From contig JAWRIT010000020.1 of the NCBI GenBank assembly GCA_040268355.1, forward strand, positions 470 to 64,469: a DNA stretch of 64,000 nucleotides. The letters run 5' to 3'. How positions within the stretch are numbered: position 1 is the first letter of the stretch; the number at the start of each line of letters is the position of its first letter. Origin of the DNA: Atopobiaceae bacterium (GTDB taxonomy: Bacteria > Actinomycetota > Coriobacteriia > Coriobacteriales > Atopobiaceae). Below are positions 28,849 to 52,913 of this stretch, piece after piece. Under the pieces are notes generated by a model. It searched no databases, was not told where the DNA came from, and worked only from the letters and a program-made list of their open reading frames with translations. A program made the position numbers and the translations under genes.

Positions 28849-29426
28849 CAGGCGATCCCGTCCCTCTCGAAGTGCTTCTTGAACAGCTTTGCGGCAATGA
28901 AGGCTCCCACGAGCGCCCCGACGACGGCCTCCACGACGAGCGCCGCGAGAATCCAGTCGGGCACGAGGGTCTGCAGGGTCTGCACGTACTCCTGCCCGTA
29001 ATAGTTCGCGGCGATGGAGAGGAACTGGTCCTTGGCGAACACAAGCATGAGGAACGGGCCGACCATGTTCAGGTTGAAGACGACGTAGGACAGGCGGAAC
29101 AGCTTCATGGACTCGTAGCTGCCCGCACGTGCGATGAGTTCGGCGGCGATGGCGGCCACCGCCGCCCAAGCCATGGCATACGGGGAGCTCGTGCACGCAA
29201 GAAGGATGAACAGCACGCCCAGGATGAGGATGGCGCCGGGCTTGCGGATGCGGGTGACACACAACAGGTAGACGGTCGCACCGACCAGGCCCACGAACAA
29301 GGGGGCCATCAGGTAGAGCACCGGGACCGCCGCGAGCGCCACGACACACACCAGCACGACGACGAGGTAGATGGCGCCAAAGGCACCGGCAAAGATCAGG
29401 TCCTTCGTGTTCATCTTTCGTTTCAT
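28848..29426 (-). CDS. MptD-family (Trep_Strep) putative ECF transporter S component
   Basis: 192-aa six-helix protein (MNTKDLIFAGAFGAIYLVV...) at the head of the T / ATPase / exporter string, the context I remember for this family. Confidence 0.65.
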   Translation of the reverse strand: MKRKMNTKDLIFAGAFGAIYLVVVLVCVVALAAVPVLYLMAPLFVGLVGATVYLLCVTRIRKPGAILILGVLFILLACTSSPYAMAWAAVAAIAAELIARAGSYESMKLFRLSYVVFNLNMVGPFLMLVFAKDQFLSIAANYYGQEYVQTLQTLVPDWILAALVVEAVVGALVGAFIAAKLFKKHFERDGIA

Positions 29427-29831: not shown

Positions 29832-30098
29832 CTAGTGCTCCCCATAGTGCGACTTGCAGGAAGCGATCTCCAGGTTCACTCCCACGATGCGGTAGACGAG
29901 GCGGTTCTGATCGTCTATCCGGCACGACCAGAAGCCCGCTAGATCCCCGCGCAACGGCTCCGGCTTGCCCACGCCCTCGAACGGGTCGCCGCGATCGATG
30001 TCCTTTATGAGGGCGTTGATGCGCCTGAGCGTCTTGCGGTCCTGCGCTTGCCACCAGACGTAGTCCTCCCACGCCTCCGGGGCCCAGACTTTATTCAT
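29832..30098 (-). CDS. yoeB: YoeB/Txe family type II toxin
   Basis: WEDYVWWQAQDRKTLRRINALIKDIDRGDPFEGVGKPEPLRGDLAGFWSCRIDDQNRLVYRI is the YoeB signature. Confidence 0.9.
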   Translation of the reverse strand: MNKVWAPEAWEDYVWWQAQDRKTLRRINALIKDIDRGDPFEGVGKPEPLRGDLAGFWSCRIDDQNRLVYRIVGVNLEIASCKSHYGEH

Positions 30099-30351
30099 CG
30101 TCGTCGGCTAGCTCGTGGGCGACACCGTGACCGGCGTTGAGGTCGGCAACCGAGCGGCGCAGATGGGCGAGGTTCTCAGCGCTGTAGAACGGGTCGACCG
30201 AAACCTCGAACGGGATGCGACGCTCGCGGCCCATCTTCTTCGCGAAGATGGTGAATGCGGTGGTCATGCTCATCCCGAGCTCCCGGCAGACCGCCTCCAT
30301 GTCCCTTTTGACATCCTGGTCCATGCGTATGTTCACCATTGCGGTTGCCAT
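30091..30351 (-). CDS. RelB/DinJ-type antitoxin paired with YoeB
   Basis: VNIRMDQDVKRDMEAVCRELGMSMTTAFTIFAKKM is an RHH of the DinJ type. 8-nt overlap with yoeB. Confidence 0.8.
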   Translation of the reverse strand: MATAMVNIRMDQDVKRDMEAVCRELGMSMTTAFTIFAKKMGRERRIPFEVSVDPFYSAENLAHLRRSVADLNAGHGVAHELADDDE

Positions 30352-30414
30352 GAGTAGGCTCCTTCCTGTCTGAGAAGAAGTCTATCATGACTCTTCAGAT
30401 ACGTAAAGCGAATG

Positions 30415-31434: not shown

Positions 31435-31681
31435 CTTCACCTTCTTGCCCCGCCAAAGCTCTTGGCGACATTTTAAGGCACGGGCGGGATTGTGGCGTGC
31501 GCGGATGCTCCACCTTGCATATCGGCACGATTGATGGAGGTGCGCATGAGCACGAGTACGATGGACGAGTGCTGGGTGTCGGAGCACGTGAAGGAACACC
31601 TGCGGGAGTTCGGCCTCACGCTTCCCCGGAGGACATGACGGGCCGCATCAGGACCTGGGAACGGGTGCCTTCGCACTGTGG

Positions 31682-32810
31682 GTGGGCCTCAACAAGCGAA
31701 AGGTTCGCATCCGACATTACGACGCACGCATGGTGATCCCGCTCACGTGGGATGAGGACGGGGTGATGGAGTGCGCCTTCGCCACGCGCGCCTTTTCCCG
31801 TGGCAAGGCCGTCGACCAGCTACAGATGCACCTGCTGGGCGGCATGGGATTCTCGGCAATGGATTTGCCCTTCTTGCCTTCACAATACGCAACCGTAGAG
31901 AACGATTCGCCTTCCGAACTTTCGACTCACACAGCACAAAACGCAACGGACGCGAACGCTCTTATCGACATGGAGAGCGATCCCACGTATCGCATCGTCA
32001 TCGTTTGCTTCGACCATGAGGGAAACGAGCCTACACCCGTAGGTATCCTCCCGCTCTACGAAATGGGCAGCACCTTCCCGACTATCTCGATAGTCAAACC
32101 CGCCATCACCAACACGCACGTAGACATCTCGCCATAGAGCCAGAGCGTGCTCGCAGGCACCATAGATGCAATGCAAACGGTTGGACCTCACCTTCGATGC
32201 CTTGATTAACAAGGTTGACCTGAGCAAGATGCGCGTGTTCCCCTCGGACATGATGTTCGACAAAGAGAGCTCCAACGGCGAGGGCATCACCATCCCGTTC
32301 GGCAAGCAGGGCCGCACCGTCTTCCGCAAGGTCATGAGCACGGAGGACATGACCCACGAGTTCACGCCCGCACTTCGCACTAACGCGCAAAGCGGGGCCT
32401 TCCGTATCGCCCTGCAGATGCTCGGCGACCTCACCGGCTTTCGGCCTCACGTACTTCGGCTTCGACACCACCGAATACGTGAAGACGGCCACGGAGGTGT
32501 CGAGCGACAACTCGGCTCTCATGCGCAGAATCAAGCGGCACGAAAACCTTCTGCAGGGCTCTCTGGCCAACATCACACACGCTGTCATGGCCGTGTCGCG
32601 TCACTTAGGCGAGGTCGGCCCCGATGAGGGAGTCATCCGTATCCGTTTCGACGGCTCCATCATCCAGGACACGGATGCGGAGAAACAAAGAGACATGCGC
32701 GAGGTGGCGTCACCATGGCCGCCTGGGAGTACCGCATGAAGTGGTGAGGCGAGGACGAGAGCACGGCTAAGGCACGCGCACGCGAACTTGGTGCTGGATC
32801 CTCTAGGAGC
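31682..32810 (+). pseudogene. phage portal protein (SPP1 Gp6-like), N-terminally truncated, frameshifted, with an in-frame stop
   Basis: Portal-like pieces in three frames. The C-terminal block is KTATEVSSDNSALMRRIKRHENLLQGSL...IRIRFDGSIIQDTDAEKQRDM, then AAWEYRMKW-TGA-GEDESTAKARA. Confidence 0.6.
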
Positions 32811-33173: not shown

Positions 33174-33558
33174 GTCGCTGACGGGCTGCTGCGAGCCCGT
33201 GTGGAGCCGTTGGTGGCGCTGCGCCGGCTGGACTGCTGCCCGGGTGCCCCGAGCTGGGATGCGCCTGCGGCTGACACGAACACTGTGCTGCCTGCGCCTG
33301 GACGATGGACCGGGCGGCCGTGCTGCTGGAGTGGACGCCGACGACGCACCGCGCGACCGGGCCAGCGGCCAGGACTGGCGGCACAGATAAACACGAGAAC
33401 GTGAGACTCGCCGGTTCGGTCGACTCTCTGCAAAGTCAACCGTCTAGATCCGTCGGAGTAGATAGATATACCAGCTCATGACTTTTCTCTTCTCATCCGC
33501 TCTCTGCATTTCAGCAGTTAATCAGGCGTGATGAGCAACAAAACACAACAGAAATCCC

Positions 33559-33592
33559 ATGCAATGGTAGAGTGTACGCGAAGTTATTGCAT
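33559..33592. promoter_or_regulatory. ATGCAAT-N20-ATTGCAT inverted repeat upstream of the RHH gene
   Basis: Read directly, 26 nt upstream of the ATG at 33618. Candidate operator for the RHH protein. Confidence 0.3.
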
Positions 33593-33617
33593 TTGTCAGC
33601 TCAGCGACAGGAGGGTC

Positions 33618-33821
33618 ATGAAGTACTCCGAGCTCCTGGAAAGCGGTGCAACGGCTGCTCAGCGACAGGACTTTCTCACTGAGGGCGACCAAACACCTAT
33701 CACTCTCCGGGTTCCCAAGAACCTCAAGGATGCGGCTGCTGAGGCTGCCAAACTCCGCGGCATCAGCTTCTCCGCCTTCATCCGCAACTGCATCATCAAC
33801 GAGCTTGCGGGGAGGGCATAG
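33618..33821 (+). CDS. ribbon-helix-helix (CopG-like) protein, possible controller of the downstream operon
   Basis: Start at ATG 33618 (AGGAGGG upstream). ITLRVPKNLKDAAAEAAKLRGISFSAFIRNCIINEL has a beta-strand plus two-helix RHH pattern. Confidence 0.65.
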   Translation: MKYSELLESGATAAQRQDFLTEGDQTPITLRVPKNLKDAAAEAAKLRGISFSAFIRNCIINELAGRA

Positions 33822-33822
33822 C

Positions 33823-34521
33823 GTGGCATCGCAGGTTAAGTCGCGTCAGAGAGTACAAGACCACGGCGAAGTGTTCACCAACGAGCGCGAGGTGAACGCC
33901 ATGCTGGACATGGTGAAGCAGGAGACCGAGCGCATCGACTCCCGCTTCCTCGAACCCGCCTGCGGCGACGGCAACTTCCTCGCGGAGGTTCTGCGGCGCA
34001 AGCTTGCCGTCGTCAACAGCCGCTACCGCCGCTCGCTTTCCGAGTATGAGAAGTACACGTTCGTGGCCGTCGGCAGCATCTACGGCGTGGAGCTGCTTCA
34101 CGACAACGCCGTCGCCTGTCGCGACCGCCTTTATGGCATCGTGGAGGCAGACTATATGCGCGTGTGCAAGAAGTCGCCGACGCCCGGCTACCTTGACGCC
34201 ATCCGCTTCGTCTTGGAGCGCAACATCTTGAACGGCAACGCCCTCAGCCTCAAGGCTGTGGACGAATCAGGCTCGGACACTGATGAGCCGATCATCTTCT
34301 CGGAGTGGTCCATCGTTACCGGCGACCGAGTTAAGCGCAGGGACTTTCGCCTGGACGAGATGCTAGAGGGCAGCGCCGATCAGGCTCAATTCTCTCTTTT
34401 CGGATCTAGCGGTACCCCGACATCCGAGTGGGAGTTCGACGAGGAGACCGGAGCACTGATTCCCAAACCCATCTGGGAATACCCGTTGATTAGGCTGTAT
34501 GAGGTGCAGAACGATGAGTAA
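33823..34521 (+). CDS. SAM-binding DNA-methyltransferase-like protein lacking the NPPY catalytic motif
   Basis: GTG start at 33823 (GGGGAGGG upstream, 1 nt after the RHH stop). GEVFTNEREVNAMLDMV and motif I FLEPACGDGNFL are present, as are YGVELLHDNAVACRDRL and ILNGNAL. No (N/D)PP(Y/F) anywhere in the 232 aa. Confidence 0.7.
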   Translation: MASQVKSRQRVQDHGEVFTNEREVNAMLDMVKQETERIDSRFLEPACGDGNFLAEVLRRKLAVVNSRYRRSLSEYEKYTFVAVGSIYGVELLHDNAVACRDRLYGIVEADYMRVCKKSPTPGYLDAIRFVLERNILNGNALSLKAVDESGSDTDEPIIFSEWSIVTGDRVKRRDFRLDEMLEGSADQAQFSLFGSSGTPTSEWEFDEETGALIPKPIWEYPLIRLYEVQNDE

Positions 34522-35965
34522 CCTATTCGAGGCGACATACAACCCTGACGTGTTGAGCTGTATCGCCAACCTCAGCAATGACGAGGTCTTTACGCCACCC
34601 GAGCTTGCAAACCAGATACTTGAGTTGTTGCCTGATGGCATATGGAGCGACCCGAACGTCACTTTCTTGGACCCCGCAAGTAAGTCAGGAATCTTCCTGC
34701 GTGAGATAGCTAAGCGCCTTATTGACGGACTTGAGGACGAGCTCTCCGACCTAGAGGAGAGACTTGACCACATCTATCGAAAGCAGCTGTTCGGCGTTGC
34801 GATAACCGAGCTTACAAGCCTGCTTTCGCGGCGCAGCGTCTATTGCTCAAAGTACCCGAACAGTATCTACTCCGTCGTCAGGTTCGACGACGCAGCCGGC
34901 AACATACGCTTCAAGAACACTGAGCATGTTTGGTCAGGCGGACGCTGCGTCTACTGCGGCGCAACACAGAAGGAATACGACCGCGACAAAACGCTTGAAC
35001 AGTACGCATACGAATTCATACACCTGGATGACCCAGAAGAGGTTCTGCCCATGAAGTTTGACGTTATCGTCGGCAATCCGCCATATCAGCTCAGCGATGG
35101 CGGCAACAACGCTTCCGCCATGCCCATTTACCAGAAGTTCGTGGAGCAGGCAAAGAAGCTTAACCCGCGCTACCTGGTCATGATTACGCCCTCGCGGTGG
35201 TTCTCAGGCGGCCGAGGGCTTGACGCATATCGAGCAACAATGCTCGGCGACCGACGCATCAGGAAGCTTGTCGACTTCGAGGACGCCAACGATTGCTTCC
35301 CCGGCGTGGATATGTCGGGCGGCGTGTCGTACTTCCTGTGGGACCGAAATTACGATGGTAACTGCACTGTCGTGAACATGAAGAACGGGGTCGGAACCGA
35401 GCAACAGCGTGACCTGCGCAGATACGATATCCTTATCCGTTCGAACGAGGCCGTTTCCATCGTGGATAAAGTGCTCAGCCACACGTCGGCGTTCCTCAGC
35501 AAATACGTCAGCAGCCAACGGCCTTTCGGTTTGAGGACGTTTGCAAAGCCTTCCAAGAAGGGTGATTTGACCCTCAGGTGGCGCGAGGGCAAAGGCCCTA
35601 TAAGCAGCAGCGAGATTACTATCGGCAAGGAGTGGATAAACAAGTGGAAGGTCATCGTATCCCGTGTCGTATACGAACATGCCGGTGGAACCGACGCACA
35701 GGGCATGCGCCGCATCCTCTCTATCCTCGAGGTGCTTGGTCCGAAGGAGGTCTGCACCGAAACCTACATCGTCATCAAGACCTTTGACACCCAGGAGGAG
35801 GCGCAGAACTGTTACGAATACCTCTCGTTGAAGTTCCCCCGTTTCCTTATCAGCCAGGTCGCATCTGCCCAGATGGTCAACAAGAAGTCCTTCACCTTTG
35901 TGCCAGACGTAGACTTCACGAGAAGCTGGACGGAAGGAGCTTTACGACGAATTCGGGCTCGATGA
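34514..35965 (+). CDS. N6-adenine DNA methyltransferase (Eco57I-like, gamma class), C-terminal tail frameshifted
   Basis: ATG 34514 overlaps the upstream stop (ATGAGTAA). DEVFTPPELANQILELLP, motif I FLDPASKSGIFL, motif IV IVGNPPYQ. After ...SWTE the family-typical tail ELYDEFGLDEEEIAYIESHIKKMN continues in another frame to the TAA at 36030-36032. Confidence 0.85.
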   Translation: MSNLFEATYNPDVLSCIANLSNDEVFTPPELANQILELLPDGIWSDPNVTFLDPASKSGIFLREIAKRLIDGLEDELSDLEERLDHIYRKQLFGVAITELTSLLSRRSVYCSKYPNSIYSVVRFDDAAGNIRFKNTEHVWSGGRCVYCGATQKEYDRDKTLEQYAYEFIHLDDPEEVLPMKFDVIVGNPPYQLSDGGNNASAMPIYQKFVEQAKKLNPRYLVMITPSRWFSGGRGLDAYRATMLGDRRIRKLVDFEDANDCFPGVDMSGGVSYFLWDRNYDGNCTVVNMKNGVGTEQQRDLRRYDILIRSNEAVSIVDKVLSHTSAFLSKYVSSQRPFGLRTFAKPSKKGDLTLRWREGKGPISSSEITIGKEWINKWKVIVSRVVYEHAGGTDAQGMRRILSILEVLGPKEVCTETYIVIKTFDTQEEAQNCYEYLSLKFPRFLISQVASAQMVNKKSFTFVPDVDFTRSWTEGALRRIRAR

Positions 35966-36021
35966 GGAGGAGATCGCCTACATCGAAAGCCACATCAAAA
36001 AGATGAACACGGGTGACGGCG

Positions 36022-38988
36022 ATGCCAAGTAAAGAATTCTTTCCGCCACGGCCGGATGCGCAGCCGATTATCTACGCCTTCTGCGAACCCAATAATCGCG
36101 ATGTCAAGGGCATGCTCAAGGTCGGCTATACGGCCCGCACTTTAGAGGAGCGCATGCACGAGCACTATCCGACGTTAAAGCCTGGGCCAGTGCCCTACGA
36201 GGTCGTGTTCGTCGCCCCTGCCATGCGCACCGACGGCACGACGTTCATGGACCACGAGATCCACGAGAACCTTGCGCTGAACGGATTCAAGAAGCAGCGT
36301 GATCACGACGGCAAGAAGACCGAGTGGTTCCGCTGCACGCTCGATGACGTGAAGGCTGCATACATCGCCGTTCGTGACCGGGCCGAAAACGTCGAGCGAC
36401 GCACCCGCGACTTCAAGATGCGACCCGAGCAGGAGACCGCCGTACACAAGACTGAGGCATACTTCCACTCCGTCGAGAACGAGGGCGGCGCTCTCACGCC
36501 GAAGTTCCTGTGGAACGCCAAGATGCGGTTCGGCAAGACGTTCGCCACCTACGAGCTTGCCAAGCGCATGGGCTTCAAGCGAGTGCTGATCCTGACCTTC
36601 AAGCTCGCCGTGCTGGCGGCGTGGGAGGAAGACCTGAACACGCACGTTGACTTCGAGGGCTGGCAGTTCGTGAGCCGGCCGAAGGACCCGACCAGGCCCG
36701 ACATCGCCCAGCAGTACGCCAAGGCCGACAAGAGCAGGCCGATCGTATGCTTCGGCAGCTTCCAGGACTTCCTTGGGCGTGAGGCTCGTACGGGACGCAT
36801 CAAGGCCCACCACGAGTGGGTGCGCGAGGAGGACTGGGACCTCGTCGTGTTCGACGAGTACCACTTCGGCGCGTGGAACGACAACTCCAAGAAGCTTTTC
36901 GAGCAGGAGGAAGAGGACGAGCGCGACACCACCGAGGTCACCGACACGCGGCTCGGCAAGGTGAACACCGGCAACGAGGTGAACGAGGGCGACCTGCCCA
37001 TCGTGACGCGCTACTACCTGTTCCTCTCCGGCACGCCCTTCCGGGCGCTCAACAGCGGCGAGTTCATTGAGGAGCAGATCTACAACTGGACCTACTCCGA
37101 CGAGCAGGCGGCCAAGGAGGCCTGGCCCGCCGAGCATCCCGGCAAGCCCAACCCGTACGCGTCGCTGCCGCGCATGGTGATGCTCGCCTACCAGATGCCC
37201 GACGAGATAAAGAACGTGGCGCTGGGTGGCGAGTACAACAGCTTCGACCTGAACGCCTTCTTCGAGGCGACCGGCGAGGGCGACAGCGCGGAGTTCGTGC
37301 TCAAGGACTCGGTCCAGAAGTGGCTCGACCTTATACGCGGCTCCTACAAGCCCTCTGCCGTGGACGACCTCAAGCTGGGCGCCGAGAAACCAGCTCTTCC
37401 ATACGCCGACACGCGCCTGCTGCGGGTGCTCAATCACACGCTCTGGTACCTGCCGCGCGTGAACAGCTGCTACGCGATGCGCAACCTCCTGCGCGAACCG
37501 CAGAACGTGTTCTTCCACGACTACACAATCAACGTATGTGCGGGCACCGAGGCCGGCATCGGCATGGTCGCGCTCGACAAGGTGCGCGAGACCATGGAGG
37601 ACCCGCTGCACTCCCAAACCATCACGCTGACCTGTGGCAAGCTGACCACGGGCGTGACCGTTAAGCCGTGGTGCGGGATATTCATGCTCGCCAACATGCG
37701 CAGCCCCGAAACCTACTTCCAGGCCGCCTTCCGCGTGCAGTCGCCATGGACCGTAGAAAACGACGCCAGCAAGATGGAGATCGTGAAGCAGGAATGCTAC
37801 GTTTTCGACTTCGCTCTAGACCGGTCGCTCCGTATGGTCTCCGACTACTCATGCCGCCTGAAGGTGGACGGGAATGTGGGTCCCGAGCAGAAGGTCGGCG
37901 AGTTCATCAACTTCCTTCCCGTGCTTGCCTATGACGGCAGCGCCATGCGTCCCGTGAGCGCGGCTGACATCCTCGACATCGCCATGGCTGGCACATCCGC
38001 GACGCTGCTTGCAAGGCGCTGGGAATCCGCTCTGCTTGTCAACGTGGACAACGACACGCTTCGCCGCATCCTCAACAACGAGGACGCGCTCAACGCCCTC
38101 ATGAGCATCGAGGGCTTCCGCTCGCTCAACGCCGACATCGAGACCATCATCAATCGGTCCGAGGCCATCAAGAAGGTCAAGCGTGGGAAGGAAGAGATGA
38201 CCCCCAAGGAGAAGAAGCAGATCTCCGAGGAGGAGAAGGAGCTCAAGAGCAAGCGCAAGCAGATCCAGGAGAAGCTGATCAAGTTCGCCACGCGCATACC
38301 GGTCTTCATGTACCTGACCGACTACCGCGAGGAGACCCTGAAGGACGTTATCACGCAGCTTGAGCCAGGGCTCTTCAAGAAGGTGACCGGCCTCACCGTC
38401 GCTGACTTCGAGCTGCTGGTATCTCTCGGCGTCTTCAACGACGCGTTGATGAACGATGCCGTTTACAAGTTCCGCCGCTACGAGGACTCCTCGTTGCGCT
38501 ACACCGGCATCGACCGACACGCTGGCGAGCGCGTCGGCTTGTTCGACACGTCGCTCAGCGAGTTCGAGTACATGGCCATGGCCCAAGAGGAGTCGATGGT
38601 TGCGCCGAACGGTCTTGCGAGGCCCGTCGGGCGTGCGACCGGCGCGAGCGCGAAGGTACCCACACGCAAACTGGCTGCTGCCAGCAAGCCTGCAGGCGGC
38701 GGCGACACGCGCACGGCCAAGGCCACCGTGCCCGTGGCAAAGCCCACGCCCAAGAAGGCCGAGAGCCGCAGGATCGAGCGCGGCGACGCCCGCACGGCCG
38801 CCAAGCCCTCCCAGAATGCAGCGAGGCGTGACTGGATCGTTGAGGCGCTGGAAGACGCCGGGCTCAAGTACCTGGACAAGCGCGGCAACTCTGGCTGCCT
38901 GTGGGTCATCGGCGCGAGCGAACTCTCTGGCCGCATGAAGGAGCTTGAGCTGCGCGGGGCGCGGTTCAGGTTCAGCTCGACGACCTAG
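36022..38988 (+). CDS. T5orf172/GIY-YIG nuclease domain fused to an SF2 (DExH, type III Res-like) helicase
   Basis: N-terminus: IIYAFCEP...MLKVGYTARTLEERMHEH...TEWFRCTLDDV (T5orf172-type GIY-YIG). Helicase motif I MRFGKTF, motif II VVFDEYHFG, motif III FLSGTPF. Lys/Glu-rich coiled segment near aa 700-750. Confidence 0.8.
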   Translation: MPSKEFFPPRPDAQPIIYAFCEPNNRDVKGMLKVGYTARTLEERMHEHYPTLKPGPVPYEVVFVAPAMRTDGTTFMDHEIHENLALNGFKKQRDHDGKKTEWFRCTLDDVKAAYIAVRDRAENVERRTRDFKMRPEQETAVHKTEAYFHSVENEGGALTPKFLWNAKMRFGKTFATYELAKRMGFKRVLILTFKLAVLAAWEEDLNTHVDFEGWQFVSRPKDPTRPDIAQQYAKADKSRPIVCFGSFQDFLGREARTGRIKAHHEWVREEDWDLVVFDEYHFGAWNDNSKKLFEQEEEDERDTTEVTDTRLGKVNTGNEVNEGDLPIVTRYYLFLSGTPFRALNSGEFIEEQIYNWTYSDEQAAKEAWPAEHPGKPNPYASLPRMVMLAYQMPDEIKNVALGGEYNSFDLNAFFEATGEGDSAEFVLKDSVQKWLDLIRGSYKPSAVDDLKLGAEKPALPYADTRLLRVLNHTLWYLPRVNSCYAMRNLLREPQNVFFHDYTINVCAGTEAGIGMVALDKVRETMEDPLHSQTITLTCGKLTTGVTVKPWCGIFMLANMRSPETYFQAAFRVQSPWTVENDASKMEIVKQECYVFDFALDRSLRMVSDYSCRLKVDGNVGPEQKVGEFINFLPVLAYDGSAMRPVSAADILDIAMAGTSATLLARRWESALLVNVDNDTLRRILNNEDALNALMSIEGFRSLNADIETIINRSEAIKKVKRGKEEMTPKEKKQISEEEKELKSKRKQIQEKLIKFATRIPVFMYLTDYREETLKDVITQLEPGLFKKVTGLTVADFELLVSLGVFNDALMNDAVYKFRRYEDSSLRYTGIDRHAGERVGLFDTSLSEFEYMAMAQEESMVAPNGLARPVGRATGASAKVPTRKLAAASKPAGGGDTRTAKATVPVAKPTPKKAESRRIERGDARTAAKPSQNAARRDWIVEALEDAGLKYLDKRGNSGCLWVIGASELSGRMKELELRGARFRFSSTT

Positions 38989-39002
38989 AGCCGGGTGACA
39001 CT

Positions 39003-39155
39003 GTGCTTCACAAGGCCTTCGGATACGGGCGGATCATCGACATCGATGAGTCCTACGTGGAAGTCACGTTCGACTCGGACAACAAGAAGAAGAAATCGTC
39101 TCGCAAGTTCATCTTCCCTGGGGCGTTCCACCAGGGGCTGCTGCAGATTGGGTAG
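39003..39155 (+). CDS. 50-aa ORF resembling the small beta-barrel tail found at the C-terminus of UvrD-like helicases
   Basis: Not in the ORF track (<60 aa). The frame opens at 38949 and reads LEPGDTVLHKAFGYGRIIDIDESYVEVTFDSDNKKKKSSRKFIFPGAFHQGLLQIG-stop. The only canonical start is GTG 39003. It may instead be the frameshifted tail of the helicase. Confidence 0.35.
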   Translation: MLHKAFGYGRIIDIDESYVEVTFDSDNKKKKSSRKFIFPGAFHQGLLQIG

Positions 39156-39162
39156 GTGTGTC

Positions 39163-42100
39163 TTGGGAATATTCGATAAGTTCAACAATCAGAGCTTGAG
39201 CAATCAGGATGCTTTCGAGGAACTGTGCTGCCAGCTCTTCGAGACATGGGGTGTGCATTCAAGGGGCTTTGATAGCGGTTGGGATTATCGAGACATCCGA
39301 GGTGCCGGTGGCGACGGGGGCATTGAGGCCTATTGGTATAACCAGAATGACGACCAGTACATCGGTATTCAGGCGAAGTGGTTCCCAAAGACCATCACAG
39401 ACAATCAATATGGGCAGGTAAGAGGCTCAATCAAAACGGCGGTGGAACTACGACCGACCTTGTCCACATACATCATCTGCATACCGCATAATCTTACATC
39501 CGTGCATGTTGGAAGGGGTAAGATCGTAACACCCGGAGAAGAAGCGTCATGGAAGTCGTTCGTGGACGAGATCGCTGAGGATTATCCCAAGGTCAAGTTC
39601 TTGCTCTGGGACGAGCATCACATCGAAAACCTGCTGCAAGATCCTGCGAATGAAGGTCGCCTACGGTTTTGGTTCAAAAAGTCTGCGGTTAACCCAGCTA
39701 CCGTAAAGCTTGCCTTGAACGAAGCAATCCAAAGCCTTAATGATCGTTATGTGCCTGAGATCACCGATGATGGCGGCCTTGCTACTTTTCTTGACAACTT
39801 CTTTGGCACGATTGAAAGTAGAAAGCTCACGGTCAAGGACATCGATGCCTGCCTGGATGTCTGCCACAGCCTTGAATACGTCACCGATTCTTTCATTGGC
39901 GTAGGGGACAAGATATCGGATGAGCTCAAGTCTTCGACCATCCGATGCCACGATGCCATTTGTGCGTATGCCGATGCCCTATCCCAGTGGCGCTCCGCGC
40001 TCATTGCGGAGCCGCGTGGGCTGATTAATGTTGCAAGCATGACTGTCGATTACGGTGCAATCGAAGAGTTCGAATCCGACATCCAGGACCTGAAGGACAA
40101 ATACAAGCTTACCGGACATGCGGATGAGCTGATTAAGCTGATCGATAAGTTCAGAGGGCTGCCTGGCGAATATGAGATTCGACAGGCAATGCACTATGCT
40201 TTCAGCTCCCCTCACTGTCTTGTTGTCGGCGAGCAAGGAACCGGTAAGACCTGTGGGTTCGCAAGCGAAGCTACCGGCTACCTCAACAACGGGAAGCATT
40301 TACCCATCCTTTTGAGAGCCGGCGACATCAGCGAGCATGACGGTTGGAGGCAGATAATCACGAGCGCCCTTGGCCTTACCGACTGGACGGAAGCTCAGCT
40401 ATGGCAAGCGTTGAGTGCGTCCGCTGCCATGTACGACAAGCGTGAGGATGATATTACCGTCAGGGCAAAAGTTGCGATCTTTGTTGATGGGCTGGATGAA
40501 AAGCAGCCTGCGTCACGATGGACGACACTCATCAGGCAAGGCGATGCAATCGCAAAGGAATACCCGAGAATGAGATTCGCTTATTCCACGCGTCCTCACG
40601 GTGTTGAACGTGACGGTGCCGATGATTTGTGGGACTGCTGGTACCGTATCGATAAAAACGGTGATGTTCCTGCATGGAAGCTTTTCGACCGTTATATTGA
40701 GCACTACTCAATAGATCTGGATGGCAATACCCGTTATAAGTGGCTGCTCAAAACGCCCATGGAGTTGCACATGTTCTGCACCGCTTATGGCGGAAGACCA
40801 ATCGACAGGGAGGTTTCAACCTGCCTGACCTCTCTCGTTAGGGCCGAGGTCAAGAGGCTTGATGAAGAGTATGCCGCACGTAACGCGAAATCGAATGGTA
40901 TCCACGAAACACCAGTCTGGTCCACGCTCGCCGCACTTGCGAACTCGTTCCTGCTGGATGATAGCCCTCGGGATCGCGCAATAATTGGCGGTTTGATAGG
41001 GGTGACTGGGATTCAACGTGAAGATATTGGCTTGATGCTCGACTTTCTCGAAATGTACGGGATTCTTACTACCGTACGAAATCTTGGTCCTACGAGTGTG
41101 TCTCCTCCCGTATTCACATATCAGCCCGGTTCACGTCATTTGTGGGACTACTTCATGGCTGTAATGCTCATGAATACCGATGACGGAATGGCCGCCGAAC
41201 TCCTCTCCAAACATAAAGACACTGCTCGCATGTACGCGATATTGCTGGTTGAAAAATGCGGCACCCTGCCCCTTGAGAGCAATGCTCTCGTCAACGCCCT
41301 TGGAACCGGCGGAGCTCGCCGGGTGACCATAGATGCTCTGGCAAGCGCGGAGAAGGGTGCTGCCGGCAAATTCAGGCAGTGGGCGCTTGGCGAGATGGCA
41401 AAGGGCAGAGAATCACTCTCTGAGATCGTCAATGGCATAGTCGTTCAAGTAGCGTGCGAGCAGGATCACCCTCTTGGGCCTCTGATGTTCGATGAGTACA
41501 TGAGAACATTCCCAACGCCAATCGAACGAGATCGGGTATGGGCGACACCAAGGGAGATGTCAAACGGCTACGGACTGTCGATGTACTACGAGCGAGATGC
41601 CGTGCGACACTTGCCTCGGCTACACGAGAACGATCACTGGAATCAAATGCCGCTCTTATTGGCCTGGTGCCTGATTGCAGTCAGCAACCTGCAACGGCGT
41701 CACTGCAGAAACGAGCTAGTGCAGTGGGCAATGACCAATCCCGACGAGTATGCCGAGCTGTTTGCACGGTTTGTCAATTGCGATGACCCTCAAGTCCGTG
41801 AAGACATGTTTGCCATCGCAGAGGAGGTAGTCTGTCAAGGAGAGGCAGACTTGAGCGTCAAGAAACGTTTTGCTGACATCGTTCTCGAGGCCTTATTCAA
41901 GAATCCTGACAAACCAGGAAACAGGGACGCCTCGCTGCGCCATTACGGAAGGATGCTTGTCGAGCATTGTGGCGAGAAAGGACTTGTCGGCCAGAAAGAC
42001 ATCGAACTGTGCAGGCCGCCTTACGCAGTTGAAGACAGATCGATTGCACTGCCCATTTACGCCGCCGCTGCCGAATCGGAACGAATGGGCGGTTACGAGA

Positions 42101-43557
42101 CCATCCACTACGACCTGGCCCGCTATGTGCTCGTAGACAAGCTTGAAAGCGCGTTCGGTATTTCTCGTTTCCATGGCAACGGCGACCACGACTTCGACGA
42201 TGCGCTGCAAATCGTCAAAAGGTCTGCTGATGCAGCGGGCATCGACGTGCCGAAGTTTGAGGGATGGGTTATTTCCGCCGCTTACCAGTACCTCGTTGAC
42301 CATGGTTACGATACAGACGCTTTCGTCGGCCCCCTCGATGACGAAGGCTATCGCCATGGAGGCATCGACTATAAGATATCTGGTGCATTCGGAAGCGCCG
42401 ACCATGGTTCAAGAAGCACGGTCATGACAGTCGCTGAGAAGTACGCCTGGTGCGCAAGGGCTGAAATCTGCGGTTTCATGGCAGACAGGGTGCCAATGTA
42501 TAGGAGCGCCTGGCAGAACGGTAATACCAACGAATCCTATGAGCTTGTCCACGACTACTCAGACCTGCTCAGTTATCAAAGCCCCCTTTTCGAGGCAACT
42601 GTGAACAGACTGACGGTGGAACGGGAGGGCATCACACCGGTTTTCCCACCCGCTTTCACGTGCGAGGACGGCGATCAGTTATGTTCGGAGCAAGAGCTCA
42701 ATGATTGGATCGGGGCGGGTGACGCCGAGTCCCTTGTTTCGCTCATCGAGCATGTGCCCGACGTTGATTTCTCGATTGATGGATCCACCGTTCCCGTTGC
42801 GCTATATGCAAGCGACTGGGGGATTTGCGGCAAGCAGGCCCGCGCTTGGATCTACGCTGGAGCCATGGCTTCCAGCGAACTTTCCAAGCTTTCGGAATTC
42901 GGGACGGTGGCAATAGCAGGCTACGACCATGCCTCCGCATTTGCTACGGGCATTGCTTGCGAAGCAACCTATATCTCGCCAGTCGAATACTTGTCAGCTC
43001 CTTGGCTTACCGAATACGACGAGGACCACGAGAGGGCTAAGATAGCCGATGTCCATGTCGAGGCATCACCTCTATCAGGAAGCGGTGTTGACAGCCTTAC
43101 TGACATTGGAGATTGCTGGTATCGATTCCCCTCAAAGCTTGCGATGGACCTGTGTGGAGTAACGCGCACCGACGGCGTACGCTACTTCGATACGAATGGC
43201 ATGGTCGCGTTTGAGGATATTGAGTATGGTGAGCCTTACAGGAAACATTACCAGGCTTTGCTTGCAAGCAGAGACAGACTTTATGGAGCCCTTGACGAGA
43301 GAGACTTGCATCCCGTTTGGTATGTCACTCTCCAAAGAGATGGCAACAGGCTTGCTGATGAACGGTTGCGTCAGGTCGATGCGCGCACCGAAACTTCTTG
43401 GCTGATTTGGATAGGGGCAGACGACAAGTACTGTTCGTGTCTCATGTCGGATGAGTATCCCGTGCCAGAACGGACTTATGAACCATCAGGGCTAATTGCA
43501 GAATTCCTTGAAAAGTATGCCGCTCATGATGACGAGGGCGAGGAAACAAGCGACTAG
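39163..43557 (+). CDS. Mrr-like PD-(D/E)xK nuclease - NACHT/STAND NTPase - large uncharacterised C-terminal domain
   Basis: Preferred start is TTG 39163 (GGGTAGGTG upstream; alternative TTG 39148). Nuclease core GAGGDGGIEAYW...IGIQAKW (39301-39381). Walker A VVGEQGTGKT (~40228-40251). Walker B AIFVDGLDE (~40474-40500). About 950 further aa have no repeat periodicity I can see. Confidence 0.8.
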   Translation: MGIFDKFNNQSLSNQDAFEELCCQLFETWGVHSRGFDSGWDYRDIRGAGGDGGIEAYWYNQNDDQYIGIQAKWFPKTITDNQYGQVRGSIKTAVELRPTLSTYIICIPHNLTSVHVGRGKIVTPGEEASWKSFVDEIAEDYPKVKFLLWDEHHIENLLQDPANEGRLRFWFKKSAVNPATVKLALNEAIQSLNDRYVPEITDDGGLATFLDNFFGTIESRKLTVKDIDACLDVCHSLEYVTDSFIGVGDKISDELKSSTIRCHDAICAYADALSQWRSALIAEPRGLINVASMTVDYGAIEEFESDIQDLKDKYKLTGHADELIKLIDKFRGLPGEYEIRQAMHYAFSSPHCLVVGEQGTGKTCGFASEATGYLNNGKHLPILLRAGDISEHDGWRQIITSALGLTDWTEAQLWQALSASAAMYDKREDDITVRAKVAIFVDGLDEKQPASRWTTLIRQGDAIAKEYPRMRFAYSTRPHGVERDGADDLWDCWYRIDKNGDVPAWKLFDRYIEHYSIDLDGNTRYKWLLKTPMELHMFCTAYGGRPIDREVSTCLTSLVRAEVKRLDEEYAARNAKSNGIHETPVWSTLAALANSFLLDDSPRDRAIIGGLIGVTGIQREDIGLMLDFLEMYGILTTVRNLGPTSVSPPVFTYQPGSRHLWDYFMAVMLMNTDDGMAAELLSKHKDTARMYAILLVEKCGTLPLESNALVNALGTGGARRVTIDALASAEKGAAGKFRQWALGEMAKGRESLSEIVNGIVVQVACEQDHPLGPLMFDEYMRTFPTPIERDRVWATPREMSNGYGLSMYYERDAVRHLPRLHENDHWNQMPLLLAWCLIAVSNLQRRHCRNELVQWAMTNPDEYAELFARFVNCDDPQVREDMFAIAEEVVCQGEADLSVKKRFADIVLEALFKNPDKPGNRDASLRHYGRMLVEHCGEKGLVGQKDIELCRPPYAVEDRSIALPIYAAAAESERMGGYETIHYDLARYVLVDKLESAFGISRFHGNGDHDFDDALQIVKRSADAAGIDVPKFEGWVISAAYQYLVDHGYDTDAFVGPLDDEGYRHGGIDYKISGAFGSADHGSRSTVMTVAEKYAWCARAEICGFMADRVPMYRSAWQNGNTNESYELVHDYSDLLSYQSPLFEATVNRLTVEREGITPVFPPAFTCEDGDQLCSEQELNDWIGAGDAESLVSLIEHVPDVDFSIDGSTVPVALYASDWGICGKQARAWIYAGAMASSELSKLSEFGTVAIAGYDHASAFATGIACEATYISPVEYLSAPWLTEYDEDHERAKIADVHVEASPLSGSGVDSLTDIGDCWYRFPSKLAMDLCGVTRTDGVRYFDTNGMVAFEDIEYGEPYRKHYQALLASRDRLYGALDERDLHPVWYVTLQRDGNRLADERLRQVDARTETSWLIWIGADDKYCSCLMSDEYPVPERTYEPSGLIAEFLEKYAAHDDEGEETSD

Positions 43558-44235: not shown

Positions 44236-44900
44236 ATGCCTAACAGCATCGCATTCGTGAAGAACTACACCAGCCTGATCGACGAGGTCTACCAGCGCGC
44301 GGCCGTATCGACCGTGCTCAACTCCGGGCGCCGCATGGTGCGTGCCGGCCACAACGCCAAGGAGATCATGATTCCGAAGATCAGCGTCACCGGCCTTGGC
44401 GACTACACCCGAAACGTCGGCTACAAGACCGGCACCATCACCTACGAGTTCGAAACCAAGACGTTCAACTACGACCGCGGCATCCGCCTGCTCGCCGACG
44501 TCATGGACGTGGAGGAGGCCGGCGTCCTGGATTGCTTCGTTGGAGGTGGGCGCCGAGCTGCAGCGCACGCAGGTGGCGCCCGAGGCCGACGCCTTCACCT
44601 TCAGCCAGATCGCCTCCCACGACGGCGTGGCCATGACGAGCGAGGACCTGTCTGCCGCCTCCGCGACCGACATCCTGGCGTCGCTGCGCGAGGTCACGAG
44701 CGACATGGACGAGAAGCAGGTCTCCACGGGGTCGCGCATCCTGTTCATCACACTGACGCTCAAGGGCGTGCTGGACGACTTCTCCTACGCGAGCCCGACG
44801 CGCTCCAACCGCATGCTCGAACGCTTCAGCCGCGTGGTGGAGGCGCCGCAGGTGCGCTTCTGCGCGGCGATCGACCTGCTTTCCGGCGGCGATCTCACAG
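44236..44900 (+). pseudogene. phage major capsid protein, frameshifted and 3'-truncated
   Basis: IAFVKNYTSLIDEVYQRAAVSTVLN...VTGLGDYTRNVGYKTGTITYEFETKTFNYDRGIRLLADVMDVEEAG, then a frame change near 44540 to EVGAELQRTQVAPEADAFTFSQIA... The normal C-terminus is lost near 44900. Confidence 0.65.
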
Positions 44901-44909
44901 CGATTCGAG

Positions 44910-45809
44910 GTGGATGCGTCCGGCTACTCGTCGGGTTCCGCGCAGCCCTGGGACGGCGTCAAGTCTCAGGTCACGCGCGTCGTCTTCGATTCCGCCTTCG
45001 CTGACGCAGACATGACGAACCTGGCCTACTTCTGCATGTCCTTTTCCAACTGCACGGAGGTCGTGGGCCTCCAGTACCGCGCTGGCGTGACCGACGTGAA
45101 GCAGATGTTCTCGAGCTACAACAGCCTGGAGGCCATCTACGCCATGACGTTCGACAACTCGACCATCACGAGCTACAGCACGGTCCTCTACGGGTGCAAC
45201 CGGCTTGTGGGCAGCACGGACGGCTTCGTGCCCACGAGCACGAGCGGCAAGACCGTGCTCAAGGTTAGTTCCGGCGGCGCGCCGACGGACCTGGGCAGCG
45301 ACGCCCGCACGTGGTTCCACGCCTTCTACTACGCCGACGACGCCGGCGTGCTCTCGGCGAGTTCTGCGGCGGACTCCACAAAGGAGCTCATCGCCACGAA
45401 CCGGATCTGCGCCATCGGCAAGTACCAGGGGCTGGGCTTCACGCCGTAGGACGGCAACACAGGCGCGACGCACCGCGAGCACCTTGCCAGCGCGAGCTTC
45501 GCGGCCGACATGGCCACGTTCGCGTACCTGAACCTGAACCACCTGTTCTACAGCTGCACGAACCTTGCTGCTGTTTCTGGCCTGGACAACTTGGCGAACG
45601 TCTAATACATGCGCTTCGCGTTCGCCTCGTCGGCGGTGACGGAACTGGACTTCCGAGGCTTCAACCCATCTAAGCTGAAGGACGTGGCCTACCTCTTCTC
45701 GAGCAGCCTGGTTGGCGGCAACGGGACTGCCTACGCGAGCTCCAAGGCCAGCTACAACCACTTCCGCATCGACACGGCGAGCACGCCCGGATACCTGACA
45801 GCAGCCTAG
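44910..45809 (+). pseudogene. BspA/DUF285-type leucine-rich-repeat protein with two in-frame stop codons
   Basis: Repeats of the xMFxxCxxL type (MSFSNCTEVVGL, KQMFSSYNSLEAI, VLYGCNRLVG, HLFYSCTNLAAVSGL, YMRFAFASSAVTELD). A single frame is interrupted by TAG 45447-45449 and TAA 45603-45605. Confidence 0.55.
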
Positions 45810-50309: not shown

Positions 50310-50410
50310 GTCAAAATGGTGTACGGGATTTGACTCGTGACTCGCTTGACTCCGATTATTTGCCTTTGTTACTTGCTGCGCAAAACTTCCGCCGGGAAGT
50401 CTCCTCCCCC

Positions 50411-51643
50411 TCAGAAAGTCCTTCCTTCTTGTATGAACTCGGGGATGTTCGCATGAATGATGCCGTCCCTTTGCTGAATGGGATCGCTTCGCGTTAACAG
50501 GTACTTCGGATAGTTGTCCCTGACCTGGGCGAAGGGGCGGTACTCTCGTTCCTCGGTGGCCTGATCAGCCATGATGGTCATGGCAACTTGGATGTAGACA
50601 TAGCCCATCTGGGGACTCCTCAAGATGAAGTCGCATTCTAACTTTCCGATCCGTCCAACGCTGATCTTGCAGCCCTGCGCACGGGCGTAGGAATAGACGA
50701 TGTTCTCCAGCACTGGTCCGTAGTTGATGCGATTGTCGGTGTTGAGTGCGAAGTAGAAGCCCAGGTCTGCCAGGTAGTACTTTTGCTCGCCTTGCAGGGA
50801 CTTGCGAGACTTCAGATCGAATCGGGTGCACTTGCTGATGATCTTCGCATCCTCGAGGATCTGGAGATAGCGCGCGAGGGTCTCCCTCTTAATCTTCAGA
50901 CCTTGCCTTCCTTCGAGGTCAGATTGGATGTTGCTAAGCGACACGGTGGCGCCGAAGTTGTTGATGACGTAGTCGCGCACCTGGTTGAACACCGAGACGT
51001 TCTTCACCTTCACACGCTTGCGAATGTCCTTCTGGAAGATCTCCTCGACGACTGCGGTGACATAGGCGCGCTTGTCCGCAAGCTGGGGATAATCCAGCGC
51101 CTTGGGAAAGCCTCCCTCGAGAATATACGAGTCGAACTCCGCGACGGGGTTTGGATTGACGGAGACTCCGAGGAAGCGTTTCATCTGGCAGTACTCACCG
51201 AAGTCCAGTGTCTGCATTTCGAACTCGATGTAGCGGCCGGTAAGCTTCGTGGCCAACTCGCCTGAGAGCAGGTAGGAGTTTGATCCGGTAATGAAGATGG
51301 AGAAGCCGCCCTCAGTGCGGAACTCGTTGAGCACCTCCTCGAAGCCTTCGACGTTTTGGATCTCATCGATGAAGAGGTACTTCATCCCTGCAATGTCGAG
51401 CATCGGCTCGATGAGGGCCTCGAGTTGCTCCGGGGCTTCTACGGAGCGATATCCGTATCTGTCGAGATCGAAATACGCAATGTGGTCGTCGGCGATGCCT
51501 TCATCCCTCAGCTCCTCTACGATGTACTTCATGAGGCAGGACTTGCCGCAGCGTCGAACGCCAGTGATGACTTTGATCATCCCGTCATCATGATAGAACC
51601 CACGAATCTTCTTCAGGTAGTTTTCTCGGGGGAACAGACGCAT
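50411..51643 (-). CDS. AAA-type ATPase with DUF4143-like C-terminal domain
   Basis: Start at ATG 51643. Walker A ITGVRRCGKS, Walker B YLFIDEIQ, then the ...KYYLADLGF... segment typical of this family. Confidence 0.8.
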   Translation of the reverse strand: MRLFPRENYLKKIRGFYHDDGMIKVITGVRRCGKSCLMKYIVEELRDEGIADDHIAYFDLDRYGYRSVEAPEQLEALIEPMLDIAGMKYLFIDEIQNVEGFEEVLNEFRTEGGFSIFITGSNSYLLSGELATKLTGRYIEFEMQTLDFGEYCQMKRFLGVSVNPNPVAEFDSYILEGGFPKALDYPQLADKRAYVTAVVEEIFQKDIRKRVKVKNVSVFNQVRDYVINNFGATVSLSNIQSDLEGRQGLKIKRETLARYLQILEDAKIISKCTRFDLKSRKSLQGEQKYYLADLGFYFALNTDNRINYGPVLENIVYSYARAQGCKISVGRIGKLECDFILRSPQMGYVYIQVAMTIMADQATEEREYRPFAQVRDNYPKYLLTRSDPIQQRDGIIHANIPEFIQEGRTF

Positions 51644-51744
51644 TATGGCTCCAATCTTCACTGGAGCCATACTACCAAATCACGCGATTATGGGGGTATT
51701 TTTCATCAAGTAAGCGATTTATACCCCAATAACTAAGGAATTTG

Positions 51745-52728
51745 CTACTCCCACTCGACCGTGGCGATCGGCTTCGGGCTCAGCTCGTAGCACACGCGGC
51801 AGATGCCGGGAACCTCGGCCAGGATGCGGTCGCACATGCGATGCAGCAGCGCCCAGTCGAGCTCGGGGACCTCTGCCGTCATGACGTCCACCGTGTTGAT
51901 GCAGCGGATGATACAGGGCCACTCGTAGGCACGCTTGTCGTCGCGCACGCCAGTGGCGCGGTAGTCGGGCACCACGCAGAAGTACTGCCAGATGTCGAGA
52001 CCCGCCGCGTCGATCTCCTCGCGCACGATGGCGTCGGCCTCACGCAGCGCCTCCAGGCGGTCGCGCGTGATGGCGCCGGTGCAGCGCACGCCCAGCCCCG
52101 GTCCGGGGAACGGCTGGCGGTACACCATGTCGTCAGGCAGCCCCAGCTGCTTGCCCACCACGCGCACCTCGTCCTTGAAGAGCAGCTTCACCGGCTCGAC
52201 GAGCTCCCAGTTGAGCTCGGCGGGAAGCCCTCCCACGTTGTGGTGGGCCTTCACGCCGGAGGCGGACTCAAGGATGTCGGGGTAGATGGTGCCCTGCCCC
52301 AGAAAGCCGATGCCGTCGAGCTTGGCGGCCTCCTCGTCAAAGACCTTGATGAACTCCTCGCCGATGACGTGGCGCTTGGCCTCGGGGTCGGCGACGCCCG
52401 CCAGCTTGTCGAGGAAGCGGTCGGTCGCGTCCACATAGACGAGGTCGGCCCCCATCTGGTTGCGGAACACCTCGACGACCTGCTCGGACTCTCCCTTGCG
52501 CATGAGGCCATGGTTGACGTGCACGCACACGAGCTGCTTGCCGATCGCCTTGATGAGCAGCGCGGCCACCACGGAGGAGTCAACGCCACCCGAGAGGGCC
52601 AAGAGCACTCGACCGTCCCCCACCTGGGCCCTCATGGCGCCAACGGCCTCATCTATGAAGGCGTCCGCCAGTTCGGGCGTGGTGATGCGGGCCATGTCGT
52701 CAGGACGGTGATTGCTCGTGAAGTCCAT
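51745..52728 (-). CDS. guaA: GMP synthase ATP-pyrophosphatase/dimerisation part only (no glutamine amidotransferase domain)
   Basis: PP-loop LALSGGVDSSV, then GQGTIYPDILES, HHNVGGLP and a C-terminus ...PKPIATVEWE. The ORF begins exactly where the ATP-PPase domain starts. Confidence 0.85.
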   Translation of the reverse strand: MDFTSNHRPDDMARITTPELADAFIDEAVGAMRAQVGDGRVLLALSGGVDSSVVAALLIKAIGKQLVCVHVNHGLMRKGESEQVVEVFRNQMGADLVYVDATDRFLDKLAGVADPEAKRHVIGEEFIKVFDEEAAKLDGIGFLGQGTIYPDILESASGVKAHHNVGGLPAELNWELVEPVKLLFKDEVRVVGKQLGLPDDMVYRQPFPGPGLGVRCTGAITRDRLEALREADAIVREEIDAAGLDIWQYFCVVPDYRATGVRDDKRAYEWPCIIRCINTVDVMTAEVPELDWALLHRMCDRILAEVPGICRVCYELSPKPIATVEWE

Positions 52729-52913
52729 GGGTTCTCCTTCGCACGATGGGGCCTCGACAGCAGACGAGTATAGCGAAGCGCGCTCTCCGCACGCCGAGCG
52801 TCGCGAGAACTCACGGAAGACACGCCCTTGCGCCTAACCAAACGCTCCCGGCCCGTGCACGTCTCGGCCCGAAGGCGTCCCGCGCGTCCAAGCCCGCCCA
52901 AAGAGCGACTCCC

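Follow-up and report, generated by a model that had tools for sequence, protein, structure and literature searches.

A probable, strongly divergent Avs2-type anti-phage sensor encoded within a decayed prophage head module of an Atopobiaceae bacterium

The stretch of DNA analysed here, 64,000 nucleotides from the assembly of an Atopobiaceae bacterium (GCA_040268355.1, contig JAWRIT010000020.1, positions 470 to 64,469; hereafter the window), carries on its forward strand a gene for a large protein of 1,464 amino acids, lying between restriction-modification genes and the remains of phage structural genes. In public records, this protein and its homologues are unnamed or labeled “hypothetical protein” or “restriction endonuclease,” and the NCBI Avs2 model misses them. 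The gene probably codes for an anti-phage sensor that works as a single protein and belongs to the Avs2 (AVAST type 2) family, of which it has the commonest architecture, and by analogy with characterized members it would be triggered by the phage terminase and act by degrading DNA. The gene and its parts, as read from the sequence, from profile comparisons and from structural models computed with AlphaFold2 (AF2), are the following (aa, amino acid positions in the protein):

39163-43557, + strand: complete Avs2-like gene, 1,464 aa, TTG start, stop codon at 43555-43557; best PADLOC Avs2 match at E=4.7e-60
39163-39678, + strand: predicted Mrr-like PD-(D/E)xK nuclease effector, aa 1-172; AF2 fold, Foldseek match to 8dgf_A, profile matches to EcAvs4 5-96 and LlaBIII 71-107
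39301-39378, + strand: nuclease catalytic motif GAGGDGGIE...IQAK (D51, E55, Q70, K72), invariant in 76 relatives
39679-40197, + strand: putative helical extension between nuclease and NTPase, aa ~173-345, aligned to EcAvs2 165-~340 in the profile match
40198-41232, + strand: predicted STAND NTPase module, aa ~346-690, boundaries approximate; close-family profile match to EcAvs2 174-947 (E=1.8e-18) and Pfam matches on relatives
40228-40251, + strand: Walker A motif GEQGTGKT, aa 356-363, with invariant residues, aligned to the EcAvs2 P-loop GKAGIGKS
40471-40500, + strand: Walker B motif VAIFVDGLDE, aa 437-446, of the D[GAS]hDE type, with D442 and E446 invariant
41233-42747, + strand: predicted TPR-like alpha-helical sensor region, aa 691-~1195; AF2 confidence (pLDDT) 92, all-helical to model residue ~505, hhalign 99.7%, NCBIfam and PADLOC Avs2 matches within aa 737-955
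42748-43554, + strand: predicted C-terminal sensor domain rich in beta-strands, aa ~1196-1464; strands of the AF2 model at its residues 519-738, hhalign 96.7% (E=4.4e-10), profile match to 9o4e 935-1449 (E=4.8e-33)

The N-terminal region contains the segments GAGGDGGIEAYW (aa 47-58) and IGIQAKW (aa 67-73), in which the initial annotation had recognized the D...(D/E)xK core of an Mrr-type nuclease. D51, G53, E55, Q70, and K72 show no variation in an alignment of 76 relatives. The AF2 model of aa 1-185 (predicted local distance difference test, pLDDT, of 90.7) has an alpha-beta-beta-beta-alpha-beta core (helix 14-33, strands 40-44, 56-60, and 65-71, helix 80-96, strand 100-106), in which D51 precedes the second strand, E55 lies at its start and Q70-A-K72 ends the third. 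When this model was compared with the PDB using Foldseek, the nuclease of EcAvs4 ranked first (8dgf_A, E=1.7e-4, TMq 0.55) and was the sole match at E<=0.001; the lower, non-significant matches were mostly PD-(D/E)xK nucleases (EcoO109I, DdmD, R.BspD6I, NucS/EndoMS, Can2, Hjc, PaqCI). The corresponding sequence profile matches EcAvs4 residues 5-96 (E=2e-4) and, in the restriction enzyme LlaBIII, the stretch 71-107 that includes DTGVD...IQAKFY (E=4.4e-3); this part of LlaBIII is its Mrr-family nuclease domain. The Pfam model Mrr_cat matches neither the 1,464-aa protein nor any of 32 relatives. Since both the expected fold and the catalytic residues are present in the model, the N-terminus is predicted to be a Mrr-type PD-(D/E)xK nuclease, and the fold comparison that the initial annotation had called for thus upholds its reading of this domain.

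The centre of the protein bears both nucleotide-binding motifs that had been pointed out from the sequence, and their key residues are invariant among the 76 aligned relatives: G356, G359, G361, and K362 in Walker A, D442 and E446 in the VDGLDE segment (aa 441-446) of Walker B. A D[GAS]hDE Walker B signature defines NACHT modules (Kibby et al., preprint), and D442-G-L-D-E446 conforms to it. On the other hand, Pfam detects no family on the 1,464-aa protein at E<=0.1, and its matches on the 32 relatives are all weak and divided among NPHP3_N (10 of 32), AAA_22 (8), AAA_16 (7), and NACHT (2). The earlier NACHT label therefore fits the form of the Walker B motif and may or may not hold for the domain as a whole; we call this region an Avs2-clade STAND NTPase whose Walker B is of the NACHT type, in a family conventionally filed under Avs2/STAND rather than bNACHT.

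The remaining part of the protein had been described as ~950 residues devoid of repeat periodicity by eye, and possibly as a new sensor. This suggestion does not stand. The AF2 model of the C-terminal 774 residues (aa 691-1464; pLDDT 92, predicted template modeling score 0.91) begins with a helical solenoid that reaches ~aa 1195, after which comes a beta-rich domain (~aa 1209-1428). A structure search with this model, also proposed in the initial annotation, returned only two significant matches, both of them SeAvs3 chains in 8DGC, a complex with terminase (E=5.7e-8 and 2.4e-7). The C-terminal profile matches residues 935-1449 of EcAvs2 (9o4e, E=4.8e-33), in which a TPR domain precedes a beta-strand-rich “C-terminal sensor” common to EcAvs2 and SeAvs3 (Evans et al., 2026; PMC13601566). 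A search of 1.84 billion representative proteins with the sensor region only retrieved 293 relatives at E<=1e-3; among the 150 listed, most are ~1,400-1,600 aa long and match in the same place, and the shorter ones look like fragments. Because 293 relatives share the region, and because of the profile homology to EcAvs2 and the structural match to SeAvs3, the sensor is not new but is, as far as profiles and models can tell, the sensor of Avs2, a TPR-like solenoid with a beta-rich C-terminal domain.

The assignment of the whole protein to Avs2 draws on several comparisons. Six PADLOC Avs2 models match, the best of them (E=4.7e-60) over aa 4-477 only and the others within aa 832-955; besides these, PADLOC reports one weak LmuA model, no other Avs type and no bNACHT. 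The profile of the 76 relatives matches EcAvs2 (PDB 9o4e_A) at E=1.8e-215 over profile positions 173-1437, and a profile restricted to close relatives (>=39% identity) matches the same chain at E=1.8e-18 over 185-956 (EcAvs2 174-947). For the last 500 residues, the link to 9o4e runs via intermediates, namely the group of P0089, a distant relative which has the same N-terminal nuclease and matches 9o4e end to end (E=1.8e-237). When the profiles of the query group and of the EcAvs2-like P0089 group were re-aligned independently and compared with hhalign, they matched with probabilities of 99.7% (aa 700-1100), 97.2% (aa 1100-1464), and 96.7% (aa 1195-1464). The tripartite layout described for EcAvs2 (helical extension, TPR-like solenoid, beta-rich C-terminal sensor) is found again in the AF2 models. 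With nuclease, NTPase and Avs2-type sensor all identified, the effector-STAND-sensor layout of Avs proteins, anticipated in the initial annotation, is borne out.

The way in which such a protein would act can be outlined from its studied relatives. EcAvs2 takes up the ATPase domain of the terminase in a pocket to which its helical extension, TPR domain and C-terminal sensor contribute; terminase-bound EcAvs2 assembles with ATP into a C4 tetramer in which the N-termini come together. Terminase recognition in Avs2 goes by shape, and terminases less than 10% identical to each other are tolerated (Evans et al., 2026; PMC13601566). In most Avs2 homologues, the effector is a Mrr-like double-stranded DNA nuclease (PMC13601566). 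KpAvs2, which has the nuclease-STAND-sensor layout, degrades DNA non-specifically upon activation and aborts infection, and its K71A substitution, equivalent to K72 here, abolishes toxicity (Bechon et al., 2024; PMC11564622). In both EcAvs2 and KpAvs2, the helical bundle between effector and NTPase contacts the terminase or Avap2 (PMC13601566, PMC11564622), and alternative activators are known, i.e., Ksap1/2 or vs.8 for EcAvs2/KpAvs2 (PMC13601566, PMC11564622). On the precedent of EcAvs2, KpAvs2, and SeAvs3, terminase-triggered tetramerization and non-specific DNA degradation are expected for the 1,464-aa protein. The ATPase domain of a phage large terminase would dock in the pocket between helical extension, solenoid and C-terminal sensor, a place that another small phage protein may take in some Avs2 subfamilies. 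Docking would free the ATP-bound STAND module to assemble into a tetramer, which would gather four N-terminal nuclease domains, and the nuclease, once active, would cut DNA indiscriminately and kill the cell before phage release (abortive infection).

Several observations weigh against this assignment or against carrying the EcAvs2 mechanism over unchanged. The NCBIfam Avs2 equivalog matches aa 737-955 with 51.6 bits for a cut-off of 1000, i.e., below threshold; a single-sequence phmmer search of the PDB gives no match at E<=1, and Pfam finds nothing on the protein. Because of these three results, the protein is to be regarded as a strongly diverged relative, very distant in sequence from the Avs2 proteins studied so far, and the identity of its sensor to EcAvs2-like proteins is about 15-19%. 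The Foldseek library used ends in April 2026 and does not contain 9O4E, so that the comparison of the sensor fold with EcAvs2 rests on profiles and on the published description. No accessory genes are evident near the gene, whereas KpAvs2 needs some for certain phages. Finally, in a profile alignment at ~16% identity, unreliable at this level, EcAvs2 T1128, R1130, and R1132 fall opposite G, G, and A, and E1362 and E1364 opposite S and V. In EcAvs2, the bridging ATP is coordinated by the loop T1128-G-R1130-G-R1132; in its place, next to the aligned G, G, and A, the 1,464-aa protein has, at low alignment confidence, an ADHGxRS motif (42397-42417, aa 1079-1085). To judge by the residues aligned, the protein may thus depart from EcAvs2 in its trigger or in what the bridging ATP does. 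ADHGxRS is invariant or nearly so in the close family; its counterpart is THGSKS in more distant relatives and, in EcAvs2-like ones, an R-rich loop with ERIGKKYQW after it.

These features invite the reading that the protein has an Avs2-fold sensor tuned to another trigger, a phage protein other than the terminase, or works with no bridging ATP, with the same architecture and the same nuclease-mediated abortive infection. The low identity of the sensor, the bridging-ATP arginines that are not visibly conserved, the subfamily-invariant ADHGxRS at their site and the alternative activators described for Avs2 all speak for it. The whole sensor is nevertheless kept, including the beta-rich domain common to terminase-sensing Avs2 and Avs3; D984, to which EcAvs2 D981 (a contact of the bridging ATP-Mg) aligns in the profile alignment, is invariant; and shape-based recognition in Avs2 tolerates wide sequence differences among terminases. 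We consider a different trigger quite unlikely, and retain the terminase-sensing Avs2 protein as the preferred interpretation.

The start of the gene is fixed by three independent lines of evidence. A long forward-strand open reading frame (ORF) extends over 38995-43557, and the TTG codon at 39163 lies within it and opens the 1,464-aa product; an ORF of 1,464 codons with full-length homologues is far beyond chance. The initial annotation had chosen this TTG over the GTG at 38995, which adds 56 codons overlapping another frame, and both judgments are confirmed. Homologues of 1,462-1,469 aa, with identities from 82% down to 40%, all have N-termini of the form M[S/G]IF[D/E]xF that align to the TTG codon and, residue by residue, to LGIFDKFNNQ of the 1,464-aa protein; its identity to P0002 is 82% over the full length, with no truncation. 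A blastn comparison of the window with a locus of Olsenella sp. oral taxon 809 (L001) yields a 5.5-kb block of 72% identity whose left edge falls exactly at 39163, in agreement with where the gene is called to start in L001. The three codon positions of 38995-39162 have GC contents of 0.32/0.80/0.52 in the frame of the long ORF vs. 0.52/0.31/0.83 in frame 3; the latter resembles the upstream gene (0.60/0.41/0.87), and the Avs2-like gene has a GC content at third codon positions (GC3) of 0.58. The match between the frame-3 pattern and that of the upstream gene identifies the 56 extra codons as the out-of-frame tail of the latter, which lies outside the Avs2-like gene:

38949-39155, + strand: frame-3 tail of the upstream helicase-like gene, overlapped by the long ORF call; codon-position GC 0.52/0.31/0.83, listed as ORF 39003-39155

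The frame-3 product upstream of the TTG (...LEPGDTVLHKAFGYGRIIDIDESYVEVTFD...LLQIG, then a stop) ends at 39155, 8 bases before the start codon. In the NCBI call P0001 (1,453 aa), the identical protein begins 11 codons further on and lacks conserved residues; by comparison with the homologous N-termini, the deposited protein appears to be 11 residues too short. A scan for promoters and terminators around the Avs2-like gene gave no excess over the shuffled expectation.

The helicase-like gene itself, with T5orf172 and ResIII domains, stops at TAG 38986-38988, yet frame 3 is open over 38949-39155 and adds ~65 aa (including LEPGDTVLHKAFGYGRIIDIDESYVEVTFD) with a GC3 of 0.83, as in the gene. A frameshift is therefore suspected within the G/C run at ~38950-38965; it could be a genuine mutation, a fault of the assembly or the result of programmed slippage. 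LEPGDTVLHKAFGYGRIIDIDESYVEVTFD may resemble the Tudor-like domain at the C-terminus of UvrD/PcrA helicases.

Upstream of the Avs2-like gene, a methyltransferase region (33646-34521 and 34499-35965, Eco57I-like) is followed by the helicase-like gene (36013-38988). Still further upstream, two portal fragments (31592-32627) match different parts of a portal protein (phrog_533), and on the downstream side there are a scaffold-like phage gene (43669-44202) and major-head pieces in two frames (44236-45449; phrog_422, phrog_29123). Because portal fragments, the scaffold-like gene and fragmented head pieces flank the defence genes, the Avs2-like gene is placed in a defence islet within a decayed prophage head module, the defence genes sitting between portal and scaffold. 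No terminase or further phage gene was found nearby among the ORFs scanned on both sides of the islet, PHROGs searches of the remaining small ORFs around it gave nothing phage-like and no terminase, and the window has no tRNA genes to mark an integration site. A tblastn search of 50,697 phage genomes gave no match to the 1,464-aa protein.

Olsenella sp. oral taxon 809 shares the portal fragment, the Avs2 gene, the scaffold and the start of the head gene, but its restriction-modification cassette is different (XamI-type). Where 33400-39162 of the window holds the split methyltransferase and the T5orf172-helicase gene, positions 7100-10000 of L001 hold an XamI-type restriction endonuclease and a 488-aa methyltransferase; the flanks of the swapped cassette are 72-75% identical, and the arrangement suggests a small hotspot of defence-gene exchange. 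Other homologues (L002-L004) follow MmeI and GmrSD, and the element that bears them also has a relaxase, an integrase and AbiE. Since the homologues sit beside different restriction-modification cassettes and on mobile elements, the Avs2-like gene is a unit in itself, one that moves between defence islands. The GC content of 0.53 and GC3 of 0.58 of this gene are well below those of its surroundings (neighbour GC3 ~0.85), and because of this difference in GC3 it is regarded as a horizontally acquired cassette.

This neighborhood bears on whether the protein might instead be an NTP-dependent restriction endonuclease that works with the upstream methyltransferase and helicase and recognizes DNA rather than a protein. 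A homologue bears the annotation “restriction endonuclease,” LlaBIII has an N-terminal nuclease motif that the nuclease domain resembles, and the methyltransferase and helicase-like genes lie directly upstream, with a gap of 8 bases. That cassette is, however, variable (XamI restriction endonuclease and methyltransferase in L001, MmeI and GmrSD in L002-L004), DNA homology to L001 begins exactly at the start codon, and the 1,290 residues past the nuclease are homologous to the protein-sensing Avs2 and not to any DNA-recognition module. The non-conserved cassette and the extent of the Avs2 homology led us to reject this explanation, which we hold to be very improbable. Even less probable, and likewise rejected, is a non-functional relic in a decaying prophage remnant: its neighbors are decayed, with portal and major-head genes in fragments and the upstream helicase gene frameshifted, but the gene keeps 1,464 intact codons, a length equal to that of its homologues, all invariant catalytic residues and its full-length identity to P0002.

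A more specific proposal may be added, which taken as a whole we consider unlikely. The Atopobiaceae-centred clade could form a distinct Avs2 sub-lineage with a remodelled pocket, in which ADHGxRS replaces the arginine loop of the bridging ATP, so that it senses the terminase with no bridging ATP or senses another phage protein; the gene would then be the fixed element of an islet in a domesticated prophage head module whose neighboring restriction-modification cassettes are swapped.

Other features of the window were recorded alongside. The first methyltransferase ORF (33646-34521, 291 aa) has only the N-terminal methyltransferase motifs, with weak MmeI_Mtase and MAD2-like matches, and may be a remnant of another enzyme; the second (34499-35965, 488 aa) overlaps it and codes for a complete Eco57I-like N6-adenine methyltransferase. 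At 29832-30381 (− strand), to the immediate left of the prophage remnant, a YoeB-family toxin gene (E=8.6e-34) is overlapped on its upstream side by an antitoxin-like ORF. A gene for an AAA_14/DUF4143 ATPase (50411-51670, − strand) recurs in Olsenella, where its counterpart lies downstream of the homologue. Near 52 kb, the GC content rises from ~0.55 to ~0.69 (window positions ~50400-52800), a step that is probably the right edge of the acquired region. The genes at 23103-29426 (− strand), which code for a 1,106-aa ABC protein (ABC_tran in three stretches and one transmembrane region), a 577-aa ABC transporter and a Trep_Strep membrane protein, are ordinary host cargo with no relation to the Avs2-like gene.

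Every part of the protein, a divergent member of the well-studied Avs2 family, is already known, and no new principle is added to the biology of these systems. Its recognition as an Avs2 takes this terminase-sensing family into high-GC oral and gut Actinobacteria (Olsenella and relatives). The main value lies in the annotation and in the chance that the ATP-bridging loop has been remodelled, and the divergence of the sensor (about 15-20% identity) makes the sequence useful for asking which features of the Avs2 pocket are required.

Among known systems, the bNACHT proteins (Kibby et al., 2023) share the effector-NTPase-sensor layout and a Walker B of the D[GAS]hDE type (DGLDE here), but no PADLOC bNACHT model matches, the Pfam NACHT matches are weak and limited to 2 of 32 relatives, and the sensor here is of the Avs2 type. 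SeAvs3 and EcAvs4 (Gao et al., 2022) are likewise tetramerizing nuclease-STAND-sensor proteins. The complex between SeAvs3 and the terminase (PDB 8DGC) is the sole significant structural match of the sensor model in the Foldseek library, which lacks 9O4E, and the nuclease of EcAvs4 (PDB 8DGF) is the best match of the effector domain both in structure and in sequence. Both nonetheless belong to other Avs families, of which no PADLOC model (Avs3 or Avs4) matched here; their TM-scores are low (0.25), since the solenoids differ, and EcAvs4 senses the portal protein and not the terminase. EcAvs2 (PDB 9O4E; Evans et al., 2026; PMC13601566) has a homologous helical extension, STAND ATPase, TPR-like solenoid and beta-rich sensor. 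It differs in its uncharacterized non-nuclease N-terminal effector, in place of the Mrr-like nuclease found here, and in its Walker B (DAINE vs. DGLDE here), and its bridging-ATP residues T1128, R1130, R1132, E1362, and E1364 are not visibly conserved in the 1,464-aa protein, on a low-confidence alignment. KpAvs2 (Bechon et al., 2024; PMC11564622), whose sequence similarity to this protein is found via profiles only, is encoded in an operon with a radical-SAM gene and Avap2, none of which is seen at this locus. It nevertheless shares the N-terminal Mrr-family endonuclease, the helical bundle, the STAND NTPase and the long C-terminal Avs2 sensor, and its catalytic lysine, K71, is at almost the same position as K72 here.

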